DNA of 10,855 bases from a virus. Its lineage: Duplodnaviria > Heunggongvirae > Uroviricota > Caudoviricetes. The notes beneath the pieces are model-generated. The model was not told the DNA's origin. It worked only from the letters and a program-made list of their open reading frames with translations, and searched no databases. A program made the position numbers and the translations under genes. The stretch lies in the IMG/VR virus record IMGVR_UViG_2537561727_000012. The stretch is one strand, 5' to 3'. Positions 1 to 10,087 of this stretch are shown here, one piece after another (position 1 is the stretch's first letter; the number at the start of each line of letters is the position of its first letter).

Positions 1-483
1 ATGACGAAGAAAAAAGCACATAAACCTGGTTCAGCGACCATCGCGCTTAACAAGCGCGCCCGTCACGAATACTTTATCGAAGAAGAGTTCGAAGCGGGAC
101 TTGCCCTGCAAGGCTGGGAAGTTAAATCCCTGCGCGCAGGAAAAGCCAATATCAGCGACAGCTACGTCCTTCTGCGTGACGGAGAGGCATTTCTGTTTGG
201 CGCTAACATCACGCCAATGGCCGTGGCCTCCACGCATGTGGTGTGCGATCCTACCCGTACCCGCAAGTTACTTCTCAACCAGCGCGAACTGGACTCATTG
301 TACGGTCGCGTCAATCGAGAAGGCTATACCGTAGTGGCGCTCTCCCTGTACTGGAAAAATGCCTGGTGCAAAGTGAAAATCGGCGTCGCCAAAGGTAAGA
401 AACAGCACGATAAACGTTCAGATATCAAAGAGCGCGAATGGCAGGTGGATAAAGCACGTATCATGAAAAACGCCCACCGTTAA
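1..483 (+). CDS. smpB: SsrA-binding protein SmpB (trans-translation cofactor)
   Basis: 160-aa ORF whose translation ([30 protein letters not shown]...) I recognise as enterobacterial SmpB; it lies directly upstream of the tmRNA gene, the conserved smpB-ssrA arrangement. Confidence 0.95.
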
Positions 484-677
484 ACCTGCACTCCAATTAT
501 TGACCAGTTCCTCACCGCGCCTCCCTCTCCGGCGGCGCGAATGAACATCTTATTGGCTATCACATCCGACACAAATGTTGCCATCCCATTGCTTAATCGA
601 ATAAAAATCAGGCTACATGGGTGCTAAATCTTTAACGATAACGCCATTGAGGCTGGTCATGGCGCTCATAAATCTGG

Positions 678-683
678 TATACT
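678..683 (+). promoter_or_regulatory. Candidate -10 hexamer (TATACT) of the ssrA promoter
   Basis: TATACT lies about 15 nt upstream of the mature tmRNA 5' end at 698, consistent with a short processed leader. No convincing -35 was found by eye. Confidence 0.3.
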
Positions 684-697
684 TACCTTTACACATT

Positions 698-1060
698 GGG
701 GCTGATTCTGGATTCGACGGGATTTGCGAAACCCAAGGTGCATGCCGAGGGGCGGTTGGCCTCGTAAAAAGCCGCAAAAAATAGTCGCAAACGACGAAAA
801 CTACGCTTTAGCAGCTTAATAACCTGCTTAGAGCCCTCTCTCCCTAGCCTCCGCTCTTAGGACGGGGATCAAGAGAGGTCAAACCCAAAAGAGATCGCGT
901 GGAAGCCCTGCCTGGGGTTGAAGCGTTAAAACTTAATCAGGCTAGTTTGTTAGTGGCGTGTCCGTCCGCAGCTGGCAAGCGAATGTAAAGACTGACTAAG
1001 CATGTAGTACCGAGGATGTAGGAATTTCGGACGCGGGTTCAACTCCCGCCAGCTCCACCA
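698..1060 (+). ncRNA. ssrA: tmRNA (transfer-messenger RNA, 363 nt)
   Basis: Starts GGGGCTGATTCTGGATTCGACGG and ends GGGTTCAACTCCCGCCAGCTCCACCA (tRNA-like acceptor/T-arm with encoded CCA). An internal tag reading frame at 787..819 (gca aac gac gaa aac tac gct tta gca gct taa) encodes ANDENYALAA-stop, the enterobacterial degradation tag. Confidence 0.93.
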
Positions 1061-1070
1061 AATAAATCAA

Positions 1071-1100
1071 GGGGTTACGTGAAAGCGTAGCCCCTTTTTC
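1071..1100 (+). terminator. Intrinsic terminator downstream of ssrA
   Basis: GGGGTTACG (1071..1079), loop TGAAAG, CGTAGCCCC (1086..1094): a 9-bp stem with one G-U pair, followed by TTTTTCTTT. Confidence 0.55.
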
Positions 1101-1118
1101 TTTGGTAGTGGCGGCAAA

Positions 1119-1157
1119 ATGGCGACAGACTTTTGCGTCCATCTTGCCTGTCGCCAT
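1119..1157. repeat. Perfect 10-bp inverted repeat ATGGCGACAG-N19-CTGTCGCCAT upstream of the cargo gene
   Basis: Arms at 1119..1128 and 1148..1157 are exact reverse complements. It sits 27 nt upstream of the ATG at 1184 and just upstream of its Shine-Dalgarno sequence. Candidate operator or 5'-UTR stem-loop. Confidence 0.5.
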
Positions 1158-1183
1158 CTTGAAATCATGCAAAGAGGTTTCAC

Positions 1184-1666
1184 ATGGAAGAACTTCACTT
1201 TGTTTACATCAATGCAAATGGTCGTATCGGTGTTCACTCTATACAGAGCATCAGTTATAGCGAAAATCATATACAGGGCATTTGTAAGAACACCGATCGA
1301 ATAAAAACCTTCCGAAAAGACCGCATTCTTAAACAGTACGATTCACCAGAACAAGCCATTCAGGAATGCGCGTCATTCCTCCCCGAAAGCTACTCACATC
1401 TCACTAAGCAGTCTGGTCCGAAAAAAAATACATTCGATGTGTGTTTCACCGGATTTAAGAAAGCAGATAAAGAAAGATTGGTTGATAAGGCGAATGAACA
1501 AGGATTAACGGTAAGAACCTCTGTAACCCAAAGCCTTCAGATGCTCTGTTGCGGTTACAATGCAGGCCCATCAAAAGTATCTGCAGCCAGGATGAAAGGC
1601 ACAATCATCATAGATGAGCCTGGCTTTATACATTTTCTTGAAACGGGTGAGATCCCAGATGAATAA
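1184..1666 (+). CDS. Hypothetical cargo protein: N-terminal WYL-like domain fused to C-terminal BRCT-like domain
   Basis: 160-aa ORF with a good Shine-Dalgarno (AAAGAGG, 1171..1177) 6 nt before the ATG. Residues ~5-50 (FVYINANGRIGVHSIQSISYSENHIQGICKNTDRIKTFRKDRI) match the WYL-domain pattern ending in R-x-F-R-x-D-R-I. Residues ~84-155 (FDVCFTGFKKADKERLVDKANEQGLTVRTSVTQSLQMLCCGYNAGPSKVSAARMKGTIIIDEPGFIHFL) align by eye to the C-terminal BRCT domain of NAD-dependent DNA ligase LigA. The gene is visibly more AT-rich than its flanks. Domain calls are from memory, not a search. Confidence 0.6.
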   Translation: MEELHFVYINANGRIGVHSIQSISYSENHIQGICKNTDRIKTFRKDRILKQYDSPEQAIQECASFLPESYSHLTKQSGPKKNTFDVCFTGFKKADKERLVDKANEQGLTVRTSVTQSLQMLCCGYNAGPSKVSAARMKGTIIIDEPGFIHFLETGEIPDE

Positions 1667-1692
1667 AAACCTGCCGTAGCAGGTTCTCTTTC
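1667..1692. terminator. Bidirectional intrinsic terminator between the convergent cargo gene and ogr
   Basis: Perfect 7-bp stem AACCTGC (1668..1674), loop CGTA, GCAGGTT (1679..1685). It is followed on the plus strand by CTCTTTCTC and on the minus strand by TTTTATTC. Confidence 0.5.
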
Positions 1693-1911
1693 TCAGAAAT
1701 TCATATGCCCCTGACCACCTGGCAATGGATGTGGAGGAGCAGTAGCAATCAGTGCGGGTGTCACAATAAACCGGACCACTGTTTCATGGGTAACAAAAGT
1801 GCTCCCGCAGTTAATATTTTGGCACTGGCAGTAACGCTCTTTGGTGCTTTCAGTTACTTGAAAACTGCTCCTTGTGTGTGCCGCATGACCACACTTTGGA
1901 CAATTCATCAT
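1693..1911 (-). CDS. ogr: Ogr-family zinc-finger late-gene transcriptional activator
   Basis: The 72-aa product from the internal ATG (MMNCPKCGHAAHTRSSFQVTESTKERYCQCQNINCGSTFVTHE...PHPLPGGQ) has the Cys-x2-Cys...Cys-x4-Cys motif and the length of P2 Ogr / P4 Delta. The ORF-track start at 1956 is a GTG and adds 15 non-conserved residues; an AGGGA Shine-Dalgarno precedes the ATG at 1911. Confidence 0.85.
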   Translation of the reverse strand: MMNCPKCGHAAHTRSSFQVTESTKERYCQCQNINCGSTFVTHETVVRFIVTPALIATAPPHPLPGGQGHMNF

Positions 1912-1979
1912 ATCCAGATCCCTACCTTTGCTATCAGAATCATTGCAATGATACACAAAATATCAATATTGAGAACACA

Positions 1980-3080
1980 TTATTCCATTTCAAGATCACT
2001 TATCCTCACTTCGAGTTCAATGCTGGTTGTAAAACCGTTATCCGGGCTGACGGTATGTGTCAGGGTGGTAATGGTCCATTCCGCATCATCTATCGGCTGT
2101 TTAAAGCCACTGACTTTCACTGGCATTTCCGTGTAGAGATCTGCCCGCCCTTCTGCCAGTTGTAGCGAAAATGACGCAACACCGCGTTGCAGGCGTTCCC
2201 ACTGCATTTTCGCTGCCCGTTCGGCGTTACTCCGATTGGCATAGGTGCGATTAAGTACCAGCACGTTTTCATCCGTACCCACCAGGTAATCGCCCTGCTT
2301 CGCTTCCGGCTCTTTCTTCTGCTTCTTAGTCCTGCGCTTACGCTTCACCGTGGTGCTTTCTTTCTTCGCGGGTTCGCGGGTATGCAACCAGCTGGCAATT
2401 ACTCCCGTGTAGGCTCCGCGATCTGCCAGGGTAAAGCGGTGACTGTCGCCGTCCTTGCGTGTGATAGAGATCACCGGCAGTGGTTTACCAGTGGCGCTTT
2501 TGCCCTGCCCCTGCCGGATGAATAACAGATTGCCATTTTTCACCGACGCAATAGCACCGTACTGGCGCGCCAGCCGCATCAGAAAACTGCCGTCACTCTC
2601 ATTAGTCTGGTCTATATGTTCCACGGGCTTATCCGACAGGTCTTTACCCAGTGCCATCTTCAGCTTGTGACGCGCGGCTATTTCCTTCACCACTTCCCCG
2701 ACGGTGGTCTTATGCCACGATTTTTCACGGCGGGTATTCAGCGTTTCCCGAAAATCAGCACTTCGCGCCCGGATAGTCAGGCGGTCCGGTGCGCCAGTGT
2801 GTTCAATCTCGTCCACTGTGAATGCCCCTTTCGGGAAAAGCGGCTGCCCCTTCCAGCCCAGCGCCAGCGTAATGACCGCACCACGGCGCGGCAGCACGAT
2901 TTTTCCGTCAGCGTCATCCAACTCCAGATCAAGCTGGTCCGCTTCAAAGCCCCGGTTATCCGTCAGCGTCAAACTCATCAGGCGGTTATCCAGCACAGTG
3001 GTGATATCCCTGCCCTCAATACTGATGCTGAATGCGGGAGTTTTGTTGCCTTTGTTAAGCAGTTCTGAGCTGAAATTCAC
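1980..3080 (-). CDS. D: Phage late control / tail protein D (gpD family)
   Basis: 366-aa ORF in the P2 position between U and ogr. Its start overlaps the U stop by 4 nt (ATGA). It carries an unusual Lys/Arg-rich insert (see findings). Confidence 0.85.
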   Translation of the reverse strand: MNFSSELLNKGNKTPAFSISIEGRDITTVLDNRLMSLTLTDNRGFEADQLDLELDDADGKIVLPRRGAVITLALGWKGQPLFPKGAFTVDEIEHTGAPDRLTIRARSADFRETLNTRREKSWHKTTVGEVVKEIAARHKLKMALGKDLSDKPVEHIDQTNESDGSFLMRLARQYGAIASVKNGNLLFIRQGQGKSATGKPLPVISITRKDGDSHRFTLADRGAYTGVIASWLHTREPAKKESTTVKRKRRTKKQKKEPEAKQGDYLVGTDENVLVLNRTYANRSNAERAAKMQWERLQRGVASFSLQLAEGRADLYTEMPVKVSGFKQPIDDAEWTITTLTHTVSPDNGFTTSIELEVRISDLEME

Positions 3081-3562
3081 GACAGCAGCCCTCCCACCGT
3101 TTTACTGATATCGCTTAAGGCAGACGTTGCCGTGTCCTGCAGATTATTCAGTTGCGCACTGAGATCACCGAACATATCGGACAGGGATTCATCCACTCGT
3201 TTGAGCGACAGGGTGAACTCAATCCGGCGCGGCATACCGTCGCGGAAAAACTCCGTTTTAGTCTGATTAAGTCCCTCAATCACATACATGCCGTAAATCG
3301 TGCCGCTGCCTTCAATCAGGGGCCATGCTTTCCCCTGTTCTGCCATCTGCTCCAGTGCCAGCAACGACAGCCTGCCGCCTGTTATCTCCGGCATAAGAAC
3401 ACCGGAAAGCGTCAGCATGTCGTTTTCCGGTCCCAGAAACTGCGTGGACGGACGTCGGTTTACCCGACTGTTTGCCGCATGTCGCCAGCTGCGTTGATAC
3501 TGCAGTTCCTGATACGGAACGGTGCGCAGCATAAACACGTACAATCCCAGCACCATCATCAT
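3077..3562 (-). CDS. U: Phage tail protein U (gpU family)
   Basis: 161-aa ORF (MMMVLGLYVFMLRTVPYQELQYQRSWRH...) in the P2 position between T and D. The first ATG overlaps the T stop (ATGA); the true start may be the second or third Met. Confidence 0.85.
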   Translation of the reverse strand: MMMVLGLYVFMLRTVPYQELQYQRSWRHAANSRVNRRPSTQFLGPENDMLTLSGVLMPEITGGRLSLLALEQMAEQGKAWPLIEGSGTIYGMYVIEGLNQTKTEFFRDGMPRRIEFTLSLKRVDESLSDMFGDLSAQLNNLQDTATSALSDISKTVGGLLS

Positions 3563-6500
3563 GCGTCGTATCCCCCCTGATCGCTGTAGTTACTCCTGGC
3601 TTTTGCCTTCAGCCTGCGTTCACGTTCATCAAGCTGGCGTGCCACCTCCCGCGCAATATCCTGCGCACTTTGTCCTGGCTGCGTCTGGATGATGATCTGC
3701 GTCGGTGCCTCAATCCGGTAAACGGGCGGCACAGTGGCTGCGCGACTCACCATCGCTTCACCGCCTTTCGCGGGAAGCGCCACAGGATGCAACGGTGGAA
3801 GCTCTGCTGGCGCGGCAGCAACGCCCATCATTCCGGCAACAACGGCAGCTAGTGCAGCTGTATTTCTCCGGCTGGTCACATTTGCCGGGCCGTTAACAAT
3901 TTCCGGCCCGTTTTCACCGACGATGCCAAACTGCCCGCGCGGGATATAGCCGCCGCTGTCATACATCCCCGCAAAGCCATATCCCCATGACGGAAAACCA
4001 CCCGATGGCATCATCACTTTACCGTCTGCATTCACCGTCGCAGGTTGCTGACGCGTCACGCTTTCCGGCAGTTTCGCCTTTGCAGCCTCTTTACTGACAA
4101 TGCCGAGTTTCTCCAGCAACCAGGAAACGCCGGATTTCAGGGAGTCCAGCGGATGCATGACCATATTCAGCCCTTCCGCCAGTGCCTCCCCGAATCGTCG
4201 CCCCATTGCCGCTGCACTCTGCAGTTCGGCAGAGGTCGACTTAACGGGCGTCAGCAGATCAGTAAACCAGCCCCACAGCGCCTGTACTTTGTCGCCAATC
4301 CACTGAAACACAGGCTTAAGTGGTTCGAATGCAGCACTGATGGGACCTGCCGCCGCTTTGAATCCTTCCACCACGCCGCCGAGAAATGCGGTGATGGGTT
4401 GCCAGTATTTCCAGACAACCAGCGCCACGCCCGCCAGTGCAGTAACCACAAGACCTATCGGACTGAGCAGAGCACCTAACAGACCAGATATGGCATACAG
4501 GGCAACGCGCAGCATCGCCAGCGGACCAGATGCAAGCACACGAAGCACCGCGCCTGCGGCAGCCAGTCCACCGCGCAGTACCGCCAGAGGATTCATAAAC
4601 ATCACAGCAACAGCACGTAAAGCGGATAATCCAGACCGCAATAGTGCAACCGGCGCACCTGCTACAGTTTTCAGGACATTTCCCGTCAGTGATGCCGTAC
4701 GGCGCAAAGACGACAACGGCGCAGTAAGTAAACCCGCTGCGTTACCCGATGAAGCAAGCCCGCGTCGCAGCACTGCCAGTGGAGCGCCAGCCAGCCAGAA
4801 CAACGCGCTGCTGGTTCGTGTTACTGCTGCCGTAACGGAAGGTAACGTTTTGATGCCCAGCACAGAGAATCCCAGACGGATGACTGCCAGCGGCCCCAGC
4901 ACTGCAGCCAGCGCCACAGCCAAGGTGCCGAGGCCTACGGTAACCGCAGCCACAATAGCGGCTACTTTCATCAGTGTGCCCGTCAGTTCCGGGTTAGCTT
5001 CCACCCAGCGACGCAACGCTCCCGTAACGCTTTTCACCGTGTACAGAATATCCATCAGCGGCTGGCGCAGCGTTTCGCCCAGGCTGCTGAAGGTATTCTG
5101 CGCTCCGGTTTTAACCAGCAACCACTGAGCAGAAAGTGAGTCCTTGTTGATGTCGGATTCTTTCTGCATGGAACCGAGCGCATCATTGCCCGCTGTCAGT
5201 TTTAGCTGGCGCTGTAGTTCCGGCAGGTTGTTTGCCAGTTTCGCCGCGTCATCGCCAAACTCTTTACCAAACAACATGGTCATGGCAGACAGACGCTTGT
5301 CCTGCGGCAGTGCGTTCACCTTCTCCAGCACACGCTGGATAGTTCCCATCGCATCCTTCGTCATCTGCTTTTCAATCACTTCAGGATTGAGTTTCAGCAG
5401 ATTCATCCCTTCAAAGAAACTCTTGCTTTGCATGGTGGCAATGGACAATTCACGCACCATCGCGTTTGCTGCACTGGCAGCAACCTCCGGCGCAGCACCC
5501 AGAGTCAGGAAGGTGGACCCCAGCGCCGCCGCTTTACGATAATCCAGACGGTCAGCCACACCGCCCAGACGTTGCATCACATCGATGATGTCCGCCCCTT
5601 TCGACATGGCGTTATCATCCAGATAGTTCAGCGCATCACCGAGCTGTTCAATATTGCGGGTAGGTATTTTGTAGAGCTGGGCGATTTTCCCCAGACTTTC
5701 TGACAGTTCATCCGCTGGCAGCTCAAAGGCTGTTGCCGCCTTTGCCGCCGTACTGGCGAAGGCCAGCAGGTCACGTTTCTGGTCTTCCCAGCTGTCGTCA
5801 GGGTTTGCGACGTTCATACGCGCACCACCTTCAACCAGTGCAGCGAAGTCCACCGCACCGTTTTCCATCGGCAACTGTTCGCTGGCAGCCTTGATGGCAT
5901 CCTGCATTTCATAAAAACGTGCAGTACGGTTTCCATTATCGTCACGCAGACCATTGACCTGCTTTGCCACACCTTTCATGGCATCTTCTATGCTGGTATA
6001 GCTTTTTACTGCCGCCATCACTGGCGTCCCCATTGCCAACCCTGCAGCCGTGGTAGTGGCTCCGGCTCCTGCAATACGATCGCGCACCTCCAGCGAACGG
6101 GCATAACTGGCACGCGCCGCATTCATCCTGCGCTGAGCTTCCCCCAGTCGCTTCAGCCGCGCCTCCTGTTTCCACAGTTCCTGGTTATAACGTGATGTTT
6201 CACGGGCTAAACGGGCAGTTGCTCCCGCATCATCTTTCGCAGAAATTCCCGCCCGGTACAGTTCTGCACGCACAAGCGCCGTTTGCTTCTGCAAATATTT
6301 TTGTTGTTCTTCCAGGCGTTGGACTGCCAGCGTTTGCCGACCTAAAGCCACAAGGTGCCGTTGTGATGGTTGTTCCATCGCCTCCAGCTCAGAGCTAAGC
6401 AAATTAGCCTTCTGTCTGGCATAGTTCAGCCTGTCGCCTAACTTCTTGTTATCGGCCTGCAGCTTGCGAAATTTTTCCAGGCTGTTACCCACCTGATTGA

Positions 6501-6636
6501 GTTGCTTTAATGCGTCACGGGAGTTTCTGATTGCGCCAGCCAGCTCTTTCGAACTGGCCTGTGCAGCACGGAATGGGCGGGTGAGTTTGTCAACCGCATT
6601 AAGAATGACCTGCAGGCGCAGGTTGTTATCACTCAT
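3559..6636 (-). CDS. T: Tail tape measure protein (gpT family)
   Basis: 1025-aa ORF with N-terminal coiled-coil-like segments and a central Ala/Gly/Leu-rich hydrophobic repeat region, in the P2 position after E/E'. Start MSDNNLRLQ overlaps the E' stop. Confidence 0.9.
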   Translation of the reverse strand: MSDNNLRLQVILNAVDKLTRPFRAAQASSKELAGAIRNSRDALKQLNQVGNSLEKFRKLQADNKKLGDRLNYARQKANLLSSELEAMEQPSQRHLVALGRQTLAVQRLEEQQKYLQKQTALVRAELYRAGISAKDDAGATARLARETSRYNQELWKQEARLKRLGEAQRRMNAARASYARSLEVRDRIAGAGATTTAAGLAMGTPVMAAVKSYTSIEDAMKGVAKQVNGLRDDNGNRTARFYEMQDAIKAASEQLPMENGAVDFAALVEGGARMNVANPDDSWEDQKRDLLAFASTAAKAATAFELPADELSESLGKIAQLYKIPTRNIEQLGDALNYLDDNAMSKGADIIDVMQRLGGVADRLDYRKAAALGSTFLTLGAAPEVAASAANAMVRELSIATMQSKSFFEGMNLLKLNPEVIEKQMTKDAMGTIQRVLEKVNALPQDKRLSAMTMLFGKEFGDDAAKLANNLPELQRQLKLTAGNDALGSMQKESDINKDSLSAQWLLVKTGAQNTFSSLGETLRQPLMDILYTVKSVTGALRRWVEANPELTGTLMKVAAIVAAVTVGLGTLAVALAAVLGPLAVIRLGFSVLGIKTLPSVTAAVTRTSSALFWLAGAPLAVLRRGLASSGNAAGLLTAPLSSLRRTASLTGNVLKTVAGAPVALLRSGLSALRAVAVMFMNPLAVLRGGLAAAGAVLRVLASGPLAMLRVALYAISGLLGALLSPIGLVVTALAGVALVVWKYWQPITAFLGGVVEGFKAAAGPISAAFEPLKPVFQWIGDKVQALWGWFTDLLTPVKSTSAELQSAAAMGRRFGEALAEGLNMVMHPLDSLKSGVSWLLEKLGIVSKEAAKAKLPESVTRQQPATVNADGKVMMPSGGFPSWGYGFAGMYDSGGYIPRGQFGIVGENGPEIVNGPANVTSRRNTAALAAVVAGMMGVAAAPAELPPLHPVALPAKGGEAMVSRAATVPPVYRIEAPTQIIIQTQPGQSAQDIAREVARQLDERERRLKAKARSNYSDQGGYDA

Positions 6637-7065
6637 CGTTGGCCCCGCTTCTCTGAATCGCTTTATACCGCCATTCCAGCACTTCGGTCAGCGGCATAAC
6701 GTCAGTAACGGATGGCGGCCAGTGAAAAATGGTGGCGATATCTGCCACCAGATCGTCAACCGTCAGGCTGTCGGTAAACCGGCAAGCACCGACTTCTTCA
6801 ACAAAAAAGTGACAACCTCAACCGACATGGCAGTGAGATCTGCCGGGTCCATCTCTGCAATTTCCTGTGCAGTCAGTGCCGGGCTGGAGATGCGGGGGAT
6901 CACGGTCATCATCGCGTTCACATCCATATCCATAATCGCCTGCAGGCGTGTACCGCGCAGCGCACCGGACTGCGGTTTACGCAGCACAATTTCGGTGATT
7001 TCTGTTTTACCGCGCTTGATGGGGGTATCCAGTTGAATGGTCTTTTCAGTCTGCTTATCGCTCAT
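6629..7065 (-). CDS. E+E' frameshifted tail assembly chaperone (predicted -1 frameshift product)
   Basis: Shifting -1 at the heptamer extends E by about 57 residues (VEEVGACRFTDSLTVDDLVADIATIFHWPPSVTDVMPLTEVLEWRYKAIQRSGANDE). The extension's stop overlaps the T start codon, matching the P2 E/E'/T arrangement. Confidence 0.6.
6763..7065 (-). CDS. E: Tail assembly chaperone E (gpE family), zero-frame product
   Basis: 100-aa ORF immediately upstream of T. It contains the slippery heptamer T-TTT-TTG near its 3' end, as in the P2 E / E+E' pair. Confidence 0.8.
   Translation of the reverse strand: MSDKQTEKTIQLDTPIKRGKTEITEIVLRKPQSGALRGTRLQAIMDMDVNAMMTVIPRISSPALTAQEIAEMDPADLTAMSVEVVTFLLKKSVLAGLPTA
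6802..6808 (-). other. Programmed -1 ribosomal frameshift site (slippery heptamer TTTTTTG)
   Basis: Minus-strand sequence ACT TTT TTG in the E frame (plus-strand CAAAAAA, 6802..6808). The -1 frame stays open from here to a TGA at 6629..6631. Confidence 0.6.
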
Positions 7066-7119
7066 TTTGCTGTCCTGTAAATTGGGTTCTGGCGCGGTAT
7101 CCCGCGCCGTTCAGATATA

Positions 7120-7635
7120 TCAGAGGCCGAGGGCGTTGCGGTGCGCTTCCATCAGGTCCACACCGTCCACAATTTCCACCATGTTGATAAGGTCCACTTC
7201 ATAGAGCACCTCACCATTGATGGTCAGCTTCGCGTAGCTGTTGGTACTGGTCACTTTGGTGGTGTTGCTTTCGCCCGTCTTCCACTCGCCGGAATCCACT
7301 TCTTTGTGACGTCCACGCACCACAAGCTCCACGGCCTGCACTTCTCCGGTATCGTCACGCTGGATAGAGCCGGTAAAGCGCAACTGGATGCCATCCACAG
7401 TGGCTTTGCCCATCTGCTTAAACAGCAGCAGTTCAGTACCACCAATGGAAAATTCTGTGTCCAGAGCACTGTCATCAAGCCCCAGATCCACATCCACCGC
7501 CCCCGGCATTCCGCCGCCGCGATACTTCTCATATTTGCGGGTGAATTTCGGCAGCGTCAGCGACTCTACGATCCCCTGCCAGTTGTTCCCGTCGTTAAAC
7601 AGGTTCAGATGTTTTAATTTGCGTGGTAAAGCCAT
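7120..7635 (-). CDS. FII: Contractile tail tube protein (gpFII family)
   Basis: 171-aa ORF (MALPRKLKHLNLFNDGNNWQG...) immediately downstream of the sheath gene, in P2 order. Confidence 0.9.
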   Translation of the reverse strand: MALPRKLKHLNLFNDGNNWQGIVESLTLPKFTRKYEKYRGGGMPGAVDVDLGLDDSALDTEFSIGGTELLLFKQMGKATVDGIQLRFTGSIQRDDTGEVQAVELVVRGRHKEVDSGEWKTGESNTTKVTSTNSYAKLTINGEVLYEVDLINMVEIVDGVDLMEAHRNALGL

Positions 7636-7644
7636 GTTGTCCCC

Positions 7645-8817
7645 TTACGCGCTGACCTGGCTGGCAAAATTCACCAGGTACTGATCGGTGATGCGCTGGC
7701 GCAGCATCAGATTTTCAAGTGGCGGCACTGGCGTGTAGTCATAGTCGATGGTGAGTTTTCCGGCTTTCAACGTGTCTTTGTCGTTCACCGACTCATCCAG
7801 CCAGCAATCACCACCAATGAGATACCCCTGACTGACCAGGCTGCGCATTTTGGCGCGGATACCTTCGATAATGTCGCGAGCCAGCGACGGATTCAGCGGT
7901 TTGTCCACCGCCCACATGTGCGCTTCTGCCATCGTGTCCGTCAGTACCTGCGCGGTTCGGGTGTAGTTTTCGAAGGCAAAGAGCGGGTCATCACTCAGAC
8001 AGCGGGAACCCCAGAAGCGGAAACCGTCTTTGCGGATAAGCGTGGTAACGTCGTTCTGGTTAAGCAGACCTGCATCGGTTGCCGGGTCCTGCAGATCCCA
8101 GAACACATCAGCAGAAATTCCGGTGACACCGTTCACGCCCACGTTGGACAGGCTTTTGTGCCATCCGGTCTGCTCATCAATTTTGGCGCGCAGACCGAGC
8201 GCACGAGCAGTGGCATATGCCGTTGCTTCGGCATTCAGCACCGTGTCCCAGCCCGTAAAGTCAGGCCAGATCAGCATCCCTTCGCGCTGGCTGAAGTTTT
8301 CACGGTAAGTGATCGCCTCCTGTACCGTCTTGCAGCCATACGCTGACAGGTAAGCAAACCCACGCAGGCTTTGCGCCACGCTCAGCAACTCAGTCGCAAC
8401 GGCTTTGTTATCGTGGCCTGGCACGCCGAGAATGCGCGGTTTAACGCCGAGCTGTGTCTGGGCAGATAACAGGGCTTTCATGCCTGTTTTTTTACCTTCA
8501 GCAGTCACTGCGCCGATGATATTGGTCGTGGTTTCTTCTTCCGTTTCACCCTGCGGCACACGCACAACAACGGTCACGGGTTTTGCCTGGTCAGCGATGG
8601 CATCCAGCGAACGGGCCAGCGTGCCGGACTCACCCGCTTTACCGCTGGCAGTCAGCACATCAGTGATCAGCACGGGTTTATTAAGAGGAAACATTTTTGC
8701 ATCGGCATCATCGCCCGTGCAGACCATACCCACGATGGCGGTGCTCACCGTGGTAATGGATCGGGTGCCTTCGTTGATTTCAACAACGCGCACCCCGTGG
8801 TGGTAATCCTGAGCCAT
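7645..8817 (-). CDS. FI: Contractile tail sheath protein (gpFI family)
   Basis: 390-aa ORF ([25 protein letters not shown]...) with an AGGAGG Shine-Dalgarno 8-13 nt upstream of the ATG; first gene of the FI-FII-E-T-U-D block. Confidence 0.9.
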
Positions 8818-8893
8818 AGCGGCGAACCTCCTGATTGGATTAGGCTTCGCCCTATGTTGAAGTGATTGTGCCCGACAAACAGCTAAGTGTAGT

Positions 8894-8911
8894 TGTACAG
8901 TTATTCACACA
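8894..8911 (-). promoter_or_regulatory. Candidate Ogr-responsive late promoter element (TGT-N12-ACA dyad) upstream of FI
   Basis: Minus-strand TGTGTGAATAACTGTACA ends 76 nt upstream of the FI ATG. P2-family late promoters carry a TGT-N12-ACA activator site centred near -55; spacing here is compatible if transcription starts about 25-30 nt before the ATG. Confidence 0.35.
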
Positions 8912-8959
8912 AAATGACGGTATTTGTCTACTTGCAGGGATAATCAAAATTATGCTGAT

Positions 8960-9526
8960 TCAGGGGGATTCACTGCTCTTATTTGCCGGAAATTTTCTAT
9001 AAATGGTAGAAACGCCCACATCAAAAATCAGTGCAATACGCTGTCTTGATTCTCCGGCCTCTAGTAAACGTCCAATCTGTGCCCACTGTTCGGTGGTCAA
9101 CTTAGGACGGCGTCCACCTACTCTGCCTTTGTCGCGAGCTGCAGCAATCCCCGCTCTGGTACGTTCAACTATCAGTTCGCGTTCCATTTCAGCCAGGGCA
9201 CCCATGACATGAAAAAAGAAACGGCCCATTGGGGTACTGGTATCAATACTGTCAGTCAGGCTTCGGAAATTCACGCCACGCTGGCGCAACTCTTCTATCA
9301 GCGTAACAAGATGCCGCATACTGCGTCCCAACCTGTCCAGCTTCCAGACAACCAGCGTGTCTCCTGCCGATAGTGTCCTGAGTAGTTTTTTCAGCCCCGG
9401 TCTGTCGGACTTAGTGCCACTGATTTTGTCCTCAAAAATCCGCTCACATCCCGCGCAGTTCAGTGCATTACGTTGCAAATCGGTGTTCTGGTCATTTGTT
9501 GACACGCGTACATAGCCAATAAGCAT
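8960..9526 (-). CDS. Serine DNA invertase (Hin/Gin/Pin/Cin family)
   Basis: Translation from the third Met (MLIGYVRVSTNDQNTDLQRNAL...GDTLVVWKLDRLGRSM...C-terminal HTH) closely resembles e14 Pin and Mu Gin, with the catalytic Ser in YVRVSTNDQ. The ORF-track start at 9532 adds MI; the 9526 ATG has the better Shine-Dalgarno spacing. Confidence 0.9.
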   Translation of the reverse strand: MLIGYVRVSTNDQNTDLQRNALNCAGCERIFEDKISGTKSDRPGLKKLLRTLSAGDTLVVWKLDRLGRSMRHLVTLIEELRQRGVNFRSLTDSIDTSTPMGRFFFHVMGALAEMERELIVERTRAGIAAARDKGRVGGRRPKLTTEQWAQIGRLLEAGESRQRIALIFDVGVSTIYRKFPANKSSESP

Positions 9527-9553
9527 GATCATTCCCCTGAATAAAAACCGGAG

Positions 9554-10087
9554 ATGATGCCAGTTAGCTGTTACCTCTGCATTTTCTTAAACGTTGGTTT
9601 GGGAGAAGGCTCTGCATTACCTGTTGGTGTGCCTGTTCCGTGGCCTTCCGCCACTCCGCCGACAGGCTGGCTGAAATGCAATGGTGCGGCTTTTTCTGCT
9701 GAAGAATACCCGGAACTGGCAAAGGCTTACCCGACAAATAAATTGCCTGATTTACGCGGTGAGTTTATTCGTGGCTGGGATGACGGACGTGGAGTGGATA
9801 ACGGAAGGGGATTATTAACGCTTCAGGACGGTGCGATTGTCAGTCATAACCACTATTGGGGAATCTGGACTTCACGAACTAACGACCAGACTCTGGAAAG
9901 TTTTACAGGCACCACGATTTTAAAACAAATCACGCCCCTGTCTCCGGCCATTGACTTCGATAATTACCCAATTCCCAACCCGGCTATTACAGAGGGTGGT
10001 GTTGTTGCGGCAACGACTAAACCTGCAGGTGCGAATGAAACACGCCCACGAAATGTCGCTTTTAACTATATTGTGAGGGCTGCATAA
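9554..10087 (+). CDS. Tail-fibre C-terminal variable segment, alternative (currently silent) cassette
   Basis: The translation (…PVGVPVPWPSATPPTGWLKCNGAAFSAEEYPELAKAYPTNKLPDLRGEFIRGWDDGRGVDNGRGLL…RPRNVAFNYIVRAA) is typical of the receptor-binding C-terminus of Mu S / P2 H-type fibres. It is on the opposite strand to the late operon and has no constant N-terminal part, so the first ~18 codons of the ORF (spanning the crossover site) are probably not native. It would be fused to the constant part after inversion. Confidence 0.7.
   Translation: MMPVSCYLCIFLNVGLGEGSALPVGVPVPWPSATPPTGWLKCNGAAFSAEEYPELAKAYPTNKLPDLRGEFIRGWDDGRGVDNGRGLLTLQDGAIVSHNHYWGIWTSRTNDQTLESFTGTTILKQITPLSPAIDFDNYPIPNPAITEGGVVAATTKPAGANETRPRNVAFNYIVRAA
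9582..9607. other. Candidate invertase crossover site (hix/gix/pix-like 26-bp imperfect palindrome)
   Basis: TTTTCTTAAACG-TT-GGTTTGGGAGAA has the AAAC(C)-nn-GGTTT centre of Din-family sites. It lies between the invertase start and the beginning of the fibre variable segment, the position gixR occupies in Mu. Confidence 0.4.

Follow-up and report, generated by a model that had tools for sequence, protein, structure and literature searches.

We conclude that positions 1016-1160 of the stretch of DNA studied here (10,855 nt in full length, called the window below) are very probably the attL of a temperate P2-like phage whose tyrosine integrase inserted it at the 3' end of ssrA, the tmRNA gene. 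By sequence comparison, we assign the phage to the Peduoviridae and its att and Int module to the SopEPhi/Fels-2 type. The evidence comes from the junction itself, from the phage genes beside it, and from the opposite end of the element in a contig that matches the window throughout.

Position of the junction within ssrA

On the host side, smpB (1-483, plus strand; Pfam SmpB, 1.5e-57; annotated as smpB in relatives) lies 5' of ssrA, and a sigma-70-like promoter, called as a consensus match only (654-683, plus strand; TGGTCA-18-TATACT with an extended -10 TG), stands just 5' of the mature tmRNA. The ssrA gene (698-1060, plus strand) was found by both ARAGORN, which gives the tag peptide ANDENYALAA, and Rfam, where the match to RF00023 is full length (295.8 bits, model positions 1-374) and includes the CCA end. 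It is identical at 363 of 363 nt to ssrA of occupied and of empty E. coli loci. The gene is thus intact to its CCA, as the sequence-only reading of this DNA had stated, and it stays intact because the phage brings an identical 3' end together with a new terminator.

The boundary was located by a four-way alignment of the window (attL), the far junction of E. coli M2 (attR), phage Cartapus (attP), and an unoccupied E. coli locus (attB). Left of 1016 the window follows attB, and right of 1061 it follows attP. All four sequences carry the 46 nt ATGTAGGAATTTCGGACGCGGGTTCAACTCCCGCCAGCTCCACCAA (1016-1061), the first 45 of which are the end of ssrA. The attL copy of the att core is this 45-nt identity block (1016-1060, plus strand), common to attL, attR, attP, and attB, and the final 45 nt of the tmRNA gene double as core; base 1061 (A) is also common to most core copies. 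In the alignment, attL consists of the left side of attB, the core, and the right side of attP, and attR consists of the left side of attP, the core, and the right side of attB. The same 46-nt core recurs, identical, in SopEPhi, Cartapus, RE2010, SEN8, and a Yersinia phage.

Unoccupied sites were sought with a 603-nt query in which ssrA is joined to the DNA beyond attR (the ypjA flank). Counting as a match one place that covers at least 80% of the query, 1389 of the 5426 complete E. coli genomes have ypjA directly after ssrA, and the 20 empty-site matches listed are all 100% identical across the whole query. The empty-site search and the alignment together show that an empty attB exists and that the prophage junctions are the reciprocal products of attP and attB. 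Judged by the alignment, strand exchange must fall inside the 45-nt block 1016-1060. No polymorphisms between attL and attR by which to map the crossover were found in the E. coli, Klebsiella, Salmonella, Citrobacter, or Photorhabdus cores; because all copies examined are identical at all 45 nt, the crossover point cannot be mapped within the core.

These comparisons fix the prophage boundary inside ssrA, at 1016-1060. The earlier reading had expected the core in roughly the last 20 to 60 nt of the gene, and both the 45-nt result and the unoccupied locus, which places the boundary at or within 1016-1061, fall inside that estimate. It had also described the terminator as being followed directly by prophage DNA. 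Prophage genes do follow, but the phage DNA starts earlier, inside ssrA, since the 45-nt end of the gene and the terminator are both part of the attP of the free phage and the empty site is without the terminator.

The intrinsic terminator (1069-1105, plus strand) has a 12-bp G+C-rich stem (1069-1096), followed in the terminator scan by TTTTTCTTT. It folds at -19.8 kcal/mol (z = -4.64), and none of 200 shuffled sequences folds as well. The hairpin begins 9 nt after the end of ssrA, in agreement with the earlier statement that a strong terminator stands within 10 nt of the gene. It is found in the Cartapus attP, in SopEPhi, and in a Klebsiella prophage and is missing from the empty site, which marks it as phage DNA. 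It is carried in the attP of the phage and in the lysogen supplants the native 3' flank of ssrA; on these comparisons, the ssrA terminator of the strain is phage derived.

Past the terminator, the P' arm carries two direct TGGCGRCA repeats (1109-1116 and 1120-1127, plus strand), 11 nt apart, as predicted 186-type Int arm sites. A third copy, TGGCGACA, is inverted (1149-1156, minus strand) and belongs to a 14-nt inverted repeat whose other half is 1115-1128. Of uncertain role, this copy is conserved neither in SopEPhi nor in the Klebsiella phage. Where 1.3 copies of TGGCGRCA would be expected, the window has 7, of which three fall within 48 nt, and the arrangement TGGCGRCA-N3-TGGCGRCA is found on both sides of the core (window 1109-1127; L021 11669-11687 in the far-end contig described below). 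The P' arm pair, 48-66 nt right of the core, is unchanged in 4 of the 4 right arms compared. The P arm pair, about 95-113 nt left of the core, is unchanged in 8 of 8 left arms of attR or attP, from Escherichia, Klebsiella, Salmonella, Citrobacter, and Photorhabdus, with the flanking sequence drifting. The reverse complement of the repeat fits tgccGCCActt, the 186-type arm-site consensus of P2-like phages (PMC3448106). From this conservation and the published consensus, we predict that the TGGCGRCA repeats are arm-type Int binding sites.

Phage genes in the window and the far end of the element

The phage DNA continues with a cargo gene for a 160-aa BRCT-like protein (1184-1666, plus strand), which lies between attP and ogr and is codirectional with ssrA. 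Its product matches phrog_2561 ("DNA ligase", 2.5e-77), resembles the C-terminal BRCT of NAD-dependent ligases, and is named "BRCT domain-containing protein" by PGAP; it has no match in Pfam and only weak matches in PADLOC (PDC-S48) and the PDB. The same slot is empty in SopEPhi and holds a different gene in a Klebsiella phage, and by such comparison it looks like a variable "moron" slot. Next to it is ogr, the late-gene activator and the last conserved phage gene before attP (minus strand; 1693-1911 as annotated in relatives, with Pfam Ogr_Delta at 1.3e-20 on the ORF 1693-1956). Gene D (1980-3080, minus strand; tail/baseplate hub, Pfam Phage_GPD) is followed by the tail genes U, T (the tape-measure gene, 3559-6636), E+E', E (tail assembly chaperone), FII (tube), and FI (sheath) (together 3077-8817, minus strand; Pfam), which share 96-97% nucleotide identity with phage Cartapus. 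In the Pfam order, the late-gene synteny of P2, FI-FII-E-T-U-D-ogr adjoining att, is present, and each of the nine phage genes in the window is an intact ORF that Pfam matches over its full length. The end that adjoins ssrA is thus the cargo-ogr-D end, as had been read, with the BRCT cargo, Ogr_Delta, and GPD in that order.

No tyrosine integrase is encoded in the 10,855-nt window, where Pfam identifies a serine invertase as the sole recombinase; the earlier statement that no integrase lies within 9.8 kb of the junction stands. The recombinase in question is a Gin/Cin-type serine DNA invertase of 190 aa (8960-9532, minus strand; Pfam Resolvase and HTH_7). It was considered as the integrase and rejected, being of the Gin/Cin type, flanked by gix-like repeats, and next to a segment that is flipped in another assembly. 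A 27-nt gix-like inverted-repeat site (9582-9608) marks the left end of an invertible tail-fibre segment, and the partner repeat lies beyond the window at window-equivalent 12552-12578. Past the invertase come tail-fibre and tail-fibre-assembly genes, the invertible segment spanning 9582 to window-equivalent 12578 (L011); in assembly L012 it is in the opposite orientation. Several draft contigs (L016-L020) end within the left repeat or a few hundred bases short of it (window 9179-9608), probably because of mixed segment orientations.

The far end was read in BNIZ01000001.1 (GCA_015472365.1, 4.89 Mb), the sole long contig found to be 100% identical to the window over all 10,855 nt, and the best available proxy for the source genome. 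Among complete RefSeq E. coli genomes the best match to the whole window is about 96%, and none is 100%; other assemblies with an identical tape-measure protein differ in layout beyond window position 9608. Two stretches of the contig were used (L011 and L021), which overlap by 3,547 identical bases. In window-equivalent coordinates, cI (22454-23086) stands directly before int (23090-24106, plus strand; L021 10001-11017), which encodes a full-length tyrosine integrase of 338 aa; the Int of a relative carries Int_N and Phage_integrase in Pfam. A 222-aa cargo gene (24117-24785) lies between int and the P-arm repeats, which in turn stand between this gene and a second, perfect copy of the 45-nt core (24871-24915), located 23,855 bp downstream in direct orientation.

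The same attL is found in three complete E. coli genomes, where a second perfect 45/46-nt copy lies 34,084 bp (M2), 33,699 bp (TW10690), and 33,680 bp (ACN001) downstream; in each, cI, the gene for a tyrosine integrase, and a cargo gene that varies stand ahead of this copy. The sequence-only reading had placed the integrase and the second att copy at the distal end, and both are there, in BNIZ01000001.1 and in the three complete genomes. It had expected the repeat about 30-35 kb away beside an integrase gene, a distance that holds in the three genomes (33.7-34.1 kb) but not in BNIZ01000001.1 (23,855 bp), where an 11-kb deletion reduces the spacing to 24 kb.

The cargo between int and attP varies among the elements compared and includes a GapS1 family protein, a RES-domain protein, a weak match to a 2TM effector, and the 222-aa protein (L001 34036-35556; L002 4676-5881; L004 33700-34629; L021 11028-11696). 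A slot at the portal gene holds DUF262, TIR-domain, CdiI/RNase, or AIPR genes (including L021 649-1251). Both slots are variable and may hold defence genes. An exact-match scan of species-representative genomes with the attL junction gave no match. The corresponding scan with the exact P arm and 45-nt core found only Citrobacter pasteurii, Citrobacter sp. FP75, and Photorhabdus australis (L006, L007, and L008); the presence of the same P arm and core in Citrobacter and Photorhabdus indicates that this att/Int type circulates widely in Enterobacterales.

The sequence comparisons show how this arrangement arises. In the circular phage, attP comprises, in order, a P arm with two predicted arm sites, the 45-bp core matching the ssrA end, the hairpin terminator, and a P' arm with two more such sites. 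It is flanked by cI-int-cargo on one side and by cargo-ogr-D on the other, with the ssrA fragment pointing as int does. Recombination of attP with attB therefore gives an attL in which host ssrA and the core are followed by the phage terminator, the P' arm, and cargo-ogr-D, as in the window, and an attR in which cI-int-cargo, the P arm, and the core are followed by the former downstream DNA, an arrangement seen 23.9 kb away in BNIZ01000001.1. Since the ssrA fragment in attP lies downstream of int and in the same direction, int is left at attR and the ogr side at attL. By analogy with the P2/186 integrase family, Int would bind arm and core sites together with IHF, and excision would need Int together with an Apl/Cox protein encoded beside cI. 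The earlier reading implied that finding the ogr end at ssrA was unusual. SopEPhi and the Klebsiella prophage have the same layout, and from these comparisons the ogr-proximal orientation is a family trait of SopEPhi-type phages and no anomaly.

Integrity of the prophage and alternative readings

The prophage in BNIZ01000001.1 is not complete. Relative to ACN001, it is without 11.1 kb (L005 11755-22896). The deletion took every head, lysis, and baseplate gene: it cuts off the N-terminal part of the tail-fibre gene H, runs through I, J, W, V, S, R, the lysis genes, X, L, M, N, O, and P, and includes the 5' end of the portal gene Q. At the deletion point (L011 ~3740; window-equivalent ~12897), the C-terminal part of H is fused to a 5'-truncated Q. 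A complete head, lysis, baseplate, and tail set is therefore missing, whereas relatives with the same attL are complete. Both att sites, int, an apl/cox-like gene, cI, cII, the replication genes, and the tail tube and sheath genes are kept. The deletion appears recent, because assembly L013, identical to the window up to 9608, keeps the lysis and baseplate genes. The invertible segment also contains a complete IS903-type element (IS5 family; 1,059 bp, with IS903-type terminal repeats, window-equivalent 11104-12162, L011 4475-5533), and a 9-bp overlap of the matches flanking it is consistent with target duplication. The loss of 11 kb and the gain of an insertion sequence point to a cryptic prophage that keeps its apparently functional integration module.

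One further assembly departs from this layout. L014 (GCA_000304075.2, JH954553.1, 1-7110) is identical to the window up to 9673 and then continues in inverted order, with a truncated parB, a serine recombinase, a P4-type int, attR, cargo, int, and cI. Either this genome has a large inversion (about 19 kb if the deletion is shared) that ends on one side within the tail-fibre segment, or the scaffolding is wrong. A real inversion would leave attL and attR mutually inverted, and the prophage could not excise.

Behind attR, a second island stands in tandem (L021 11827-16840; L004 34760-39771; L005 34741-39754). A terminator of its own stands right past the displaced end of ssrA. The island then encodes a 409-aa integrase of the P4 type, whose gene starts about 165 nt beyond this ssrA copy in the same orientation, followed by a large serine recombinase and two ParB-like proteins. 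Its "tRNA then integrase" shape is the commonest among tRNA-adjacent integrases. A P4-type integrase immediately 3' of the intact ssrA is absent in the window and is present only behind attR, in this separate tandem island. The Klebsiella and Citrobacter copies of attR have another flank beyond them, AAATTCTCCATCGGTGATTACC..., which presumably resembles the left end of CP4-57.

Three other readings of the junction were weighed. The window could be the edge of a degraded remnant whose far end has neither an integrase nor a second att copy, a view that gains something from the defective state of the BNIZ01000001.1 prophage, with its 11.1-kb loss and IS903-like insertion, and from the far part that appears inverted relative to the window part in L014. 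The earlier reading had named such a remnant as the outcome that would count against it; in BNIZ01000001.1 the element is a deleted remnant, but int and both att sites are kept. The cI and apl genes, the full-length int (338 aa), and the perfect 45-nt repeat refute the reading for that contig; the window's nine phage genes are intact, with full-length Pfam matches; and among the 5426 complete E. coli genomes the Int type occurs in 213, at least as many as the 165-175 with attL. We consider a remnant of this kind very unlikely.

The other two readings have, in our judgment, hardly any probability. The region 1061-1183 could be native ssrA flank, with the phage boundary to its right, close to the cargo gene or to ogr; a terminator for ssrA is to be expected at just this place, and such a boundary was implied by the first reading of the sequence. 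Genomes with an empty site, however, differ from the window from 1062 on (TCATGATTGG...) and have no hairpin there, and Cartapus, SopEPhi, and the Klebsiella prophage have the same terminator and arm repeats beside the core, by which this boundary is already refuted. A secondary rearrangement, whether an inversion or recombination between ssrA-linked elements, could also have put a prophage end at ssrA, and the tandem elements at ssrA in several genomes and the apparent large inversion in L014 would suit it. We nevertheless regard it as extremely improbable, as the junction matches the predicted attL base for base, attR is its exact reciprocal in direct orientation, and the same layout recurs in Salmonella and Klebsiella. 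Our preferred reading remains a simple attL formed by integration into ssrA.

Known elements at ssrA and consequences for the locus

The junction is a further E. coli example of a described system of integration into ssrA and as such is already known. The 3' end of ssrA had been read as the integration target, and the same site is published for SopEPhi and Fels-2: PMC3448106, citing Pelludat et al. 2003, states that both integrate into ssrA, and the 2003 paper is also cited in PMC10107115. SopEPhi, Fels-2, and SpaX are listed as P2-integrase elements at ssrA with an intact displaced fragment, CGCCAGCTCCACCA (PMC10107115, Table 1), whereas in P4-integrase islands such as CP4-57 the displaced fragment often has a one-base deletion that inactivates tmRNA on excision (PMC10107115).

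SopEPhi (Felsduovirus, AY319521) has the same 46-nt core at both ends of its record and the same terminator and two P' arm repeats beside the core. Its Int is 91% identical to that of BNIZ01000001.1 and 92% identical to that of TW10690. Its record reads att-orfY-int-cI ... FI-FII-E-T-U-D-ogr-att, which corresponds to the order found here, ssrA-attL-ogr-D-U-T-...-cI-int-cargo-attR. The two elements differ in host (Salmonella there, E. coli here) and in their tail genes, which are only about 80-84% identical at the nucleotide level. The E. coli element has the extra BRCT-like cargo between attP and ogr, a different int-side cargo, and no sopE moron, and its invertase is intact where SopEPhi has a fragment. 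Fels-2 of S. Typhimurium LT2 is likewise P2-like, with a P2/186-type integrase at ssrA and an intact CGCCAGCTCCACCA (PMC10107115, PMC3448106), a likeness drawn from the published description; the Fels-2 record was not among the matches to the att core. Its host and cargo differ from those seen here.

The closest relative along the window is Cartapus (Peduoviridae, Elveevirus, NC_070909), 96-97% identical to window 1016-9608, a span that takes in the core, terminator, arm sites, BRCT gene, ogr, and the tail genes. Its free genome has the attP order cI-int-cargo-core-terminator-P' arm-BRCT, with ogr and D following on the other strand. Cartapus is a complete phage of 33.4 kb with a RES-domain protein as its int-side cargo, in contrast to the BNIZ01000001.1 prophage, which has the 11-kb deletion, the IS, and the 222-aa protein. 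A Klebsiella pneumoniae prophage (Gegevirus) shows the same layout, with ogr next to ssrA. Coliphage 186 shares the integrase type, the cI-apl-cII-fil regulatory layout, and the arm consensus tgccGCCActt. It, too, integrates in the 3' part of a gene for a small RNA and restores that gene by a long identity block (PMC3448106), but its targets are tRNA-Ile genes, not ssrA. CP4-57 and other P4-integrase islands use the same target, likewise restore the ssrA 3' end, and supply a terminator of their own; their integrase (Arm-DNA-bind_3, Phage_int_M, and Phage_integrase; 409 aa) lies right after the ssrA copy, in the same direction. Both ssrA copies are perfect in the element studied here, unlike CP4-57 and as expected for the P2-integrase class.

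Integration may bear on the locus itself. In empty loci the first terminator-like hairpin, GAAAGCCCACAGATGTGGGCTTTTT, stands about 128 nt past the mature 3' end of tmRNA (L003 1802-1960), against 9 nt in the lysogen, so the trailer of the tmRNA precursor should differ in length, and integration could alter tmRNA 3' maturation. Between the ssrA terminator and the start codon of the cargo gene (1184-1666) no sigma-70-like promoter was found. The gene, with no apparent promoter of its own and lying downstream of the very strong ssrA promoter, could be expressed by leaky read-through in the lysogen only. The attP hairpin, which lies across from int, might stabilise int mRNA only in the circular phage, the reverse of a lambda-sib-like logic. 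Taken as a whole, the idea that insertion rewires regulation of the ssrA locus, through tmRNA maturation, cargo read-through, and int mRNA, seems to us unlikely.

The value of these results is mainly correct annotation, and current knowledge is not challenged. In BNIZ01000001.1, the cryptic prophage and the P4-type island form a tandem array at ssrA. As both copies of the ssrA end are perfect, excision of the prophage would leave a wild-type tmRNA gene behind, whereas that of CP4-57 inactivates tmRNA (PMC10107115).
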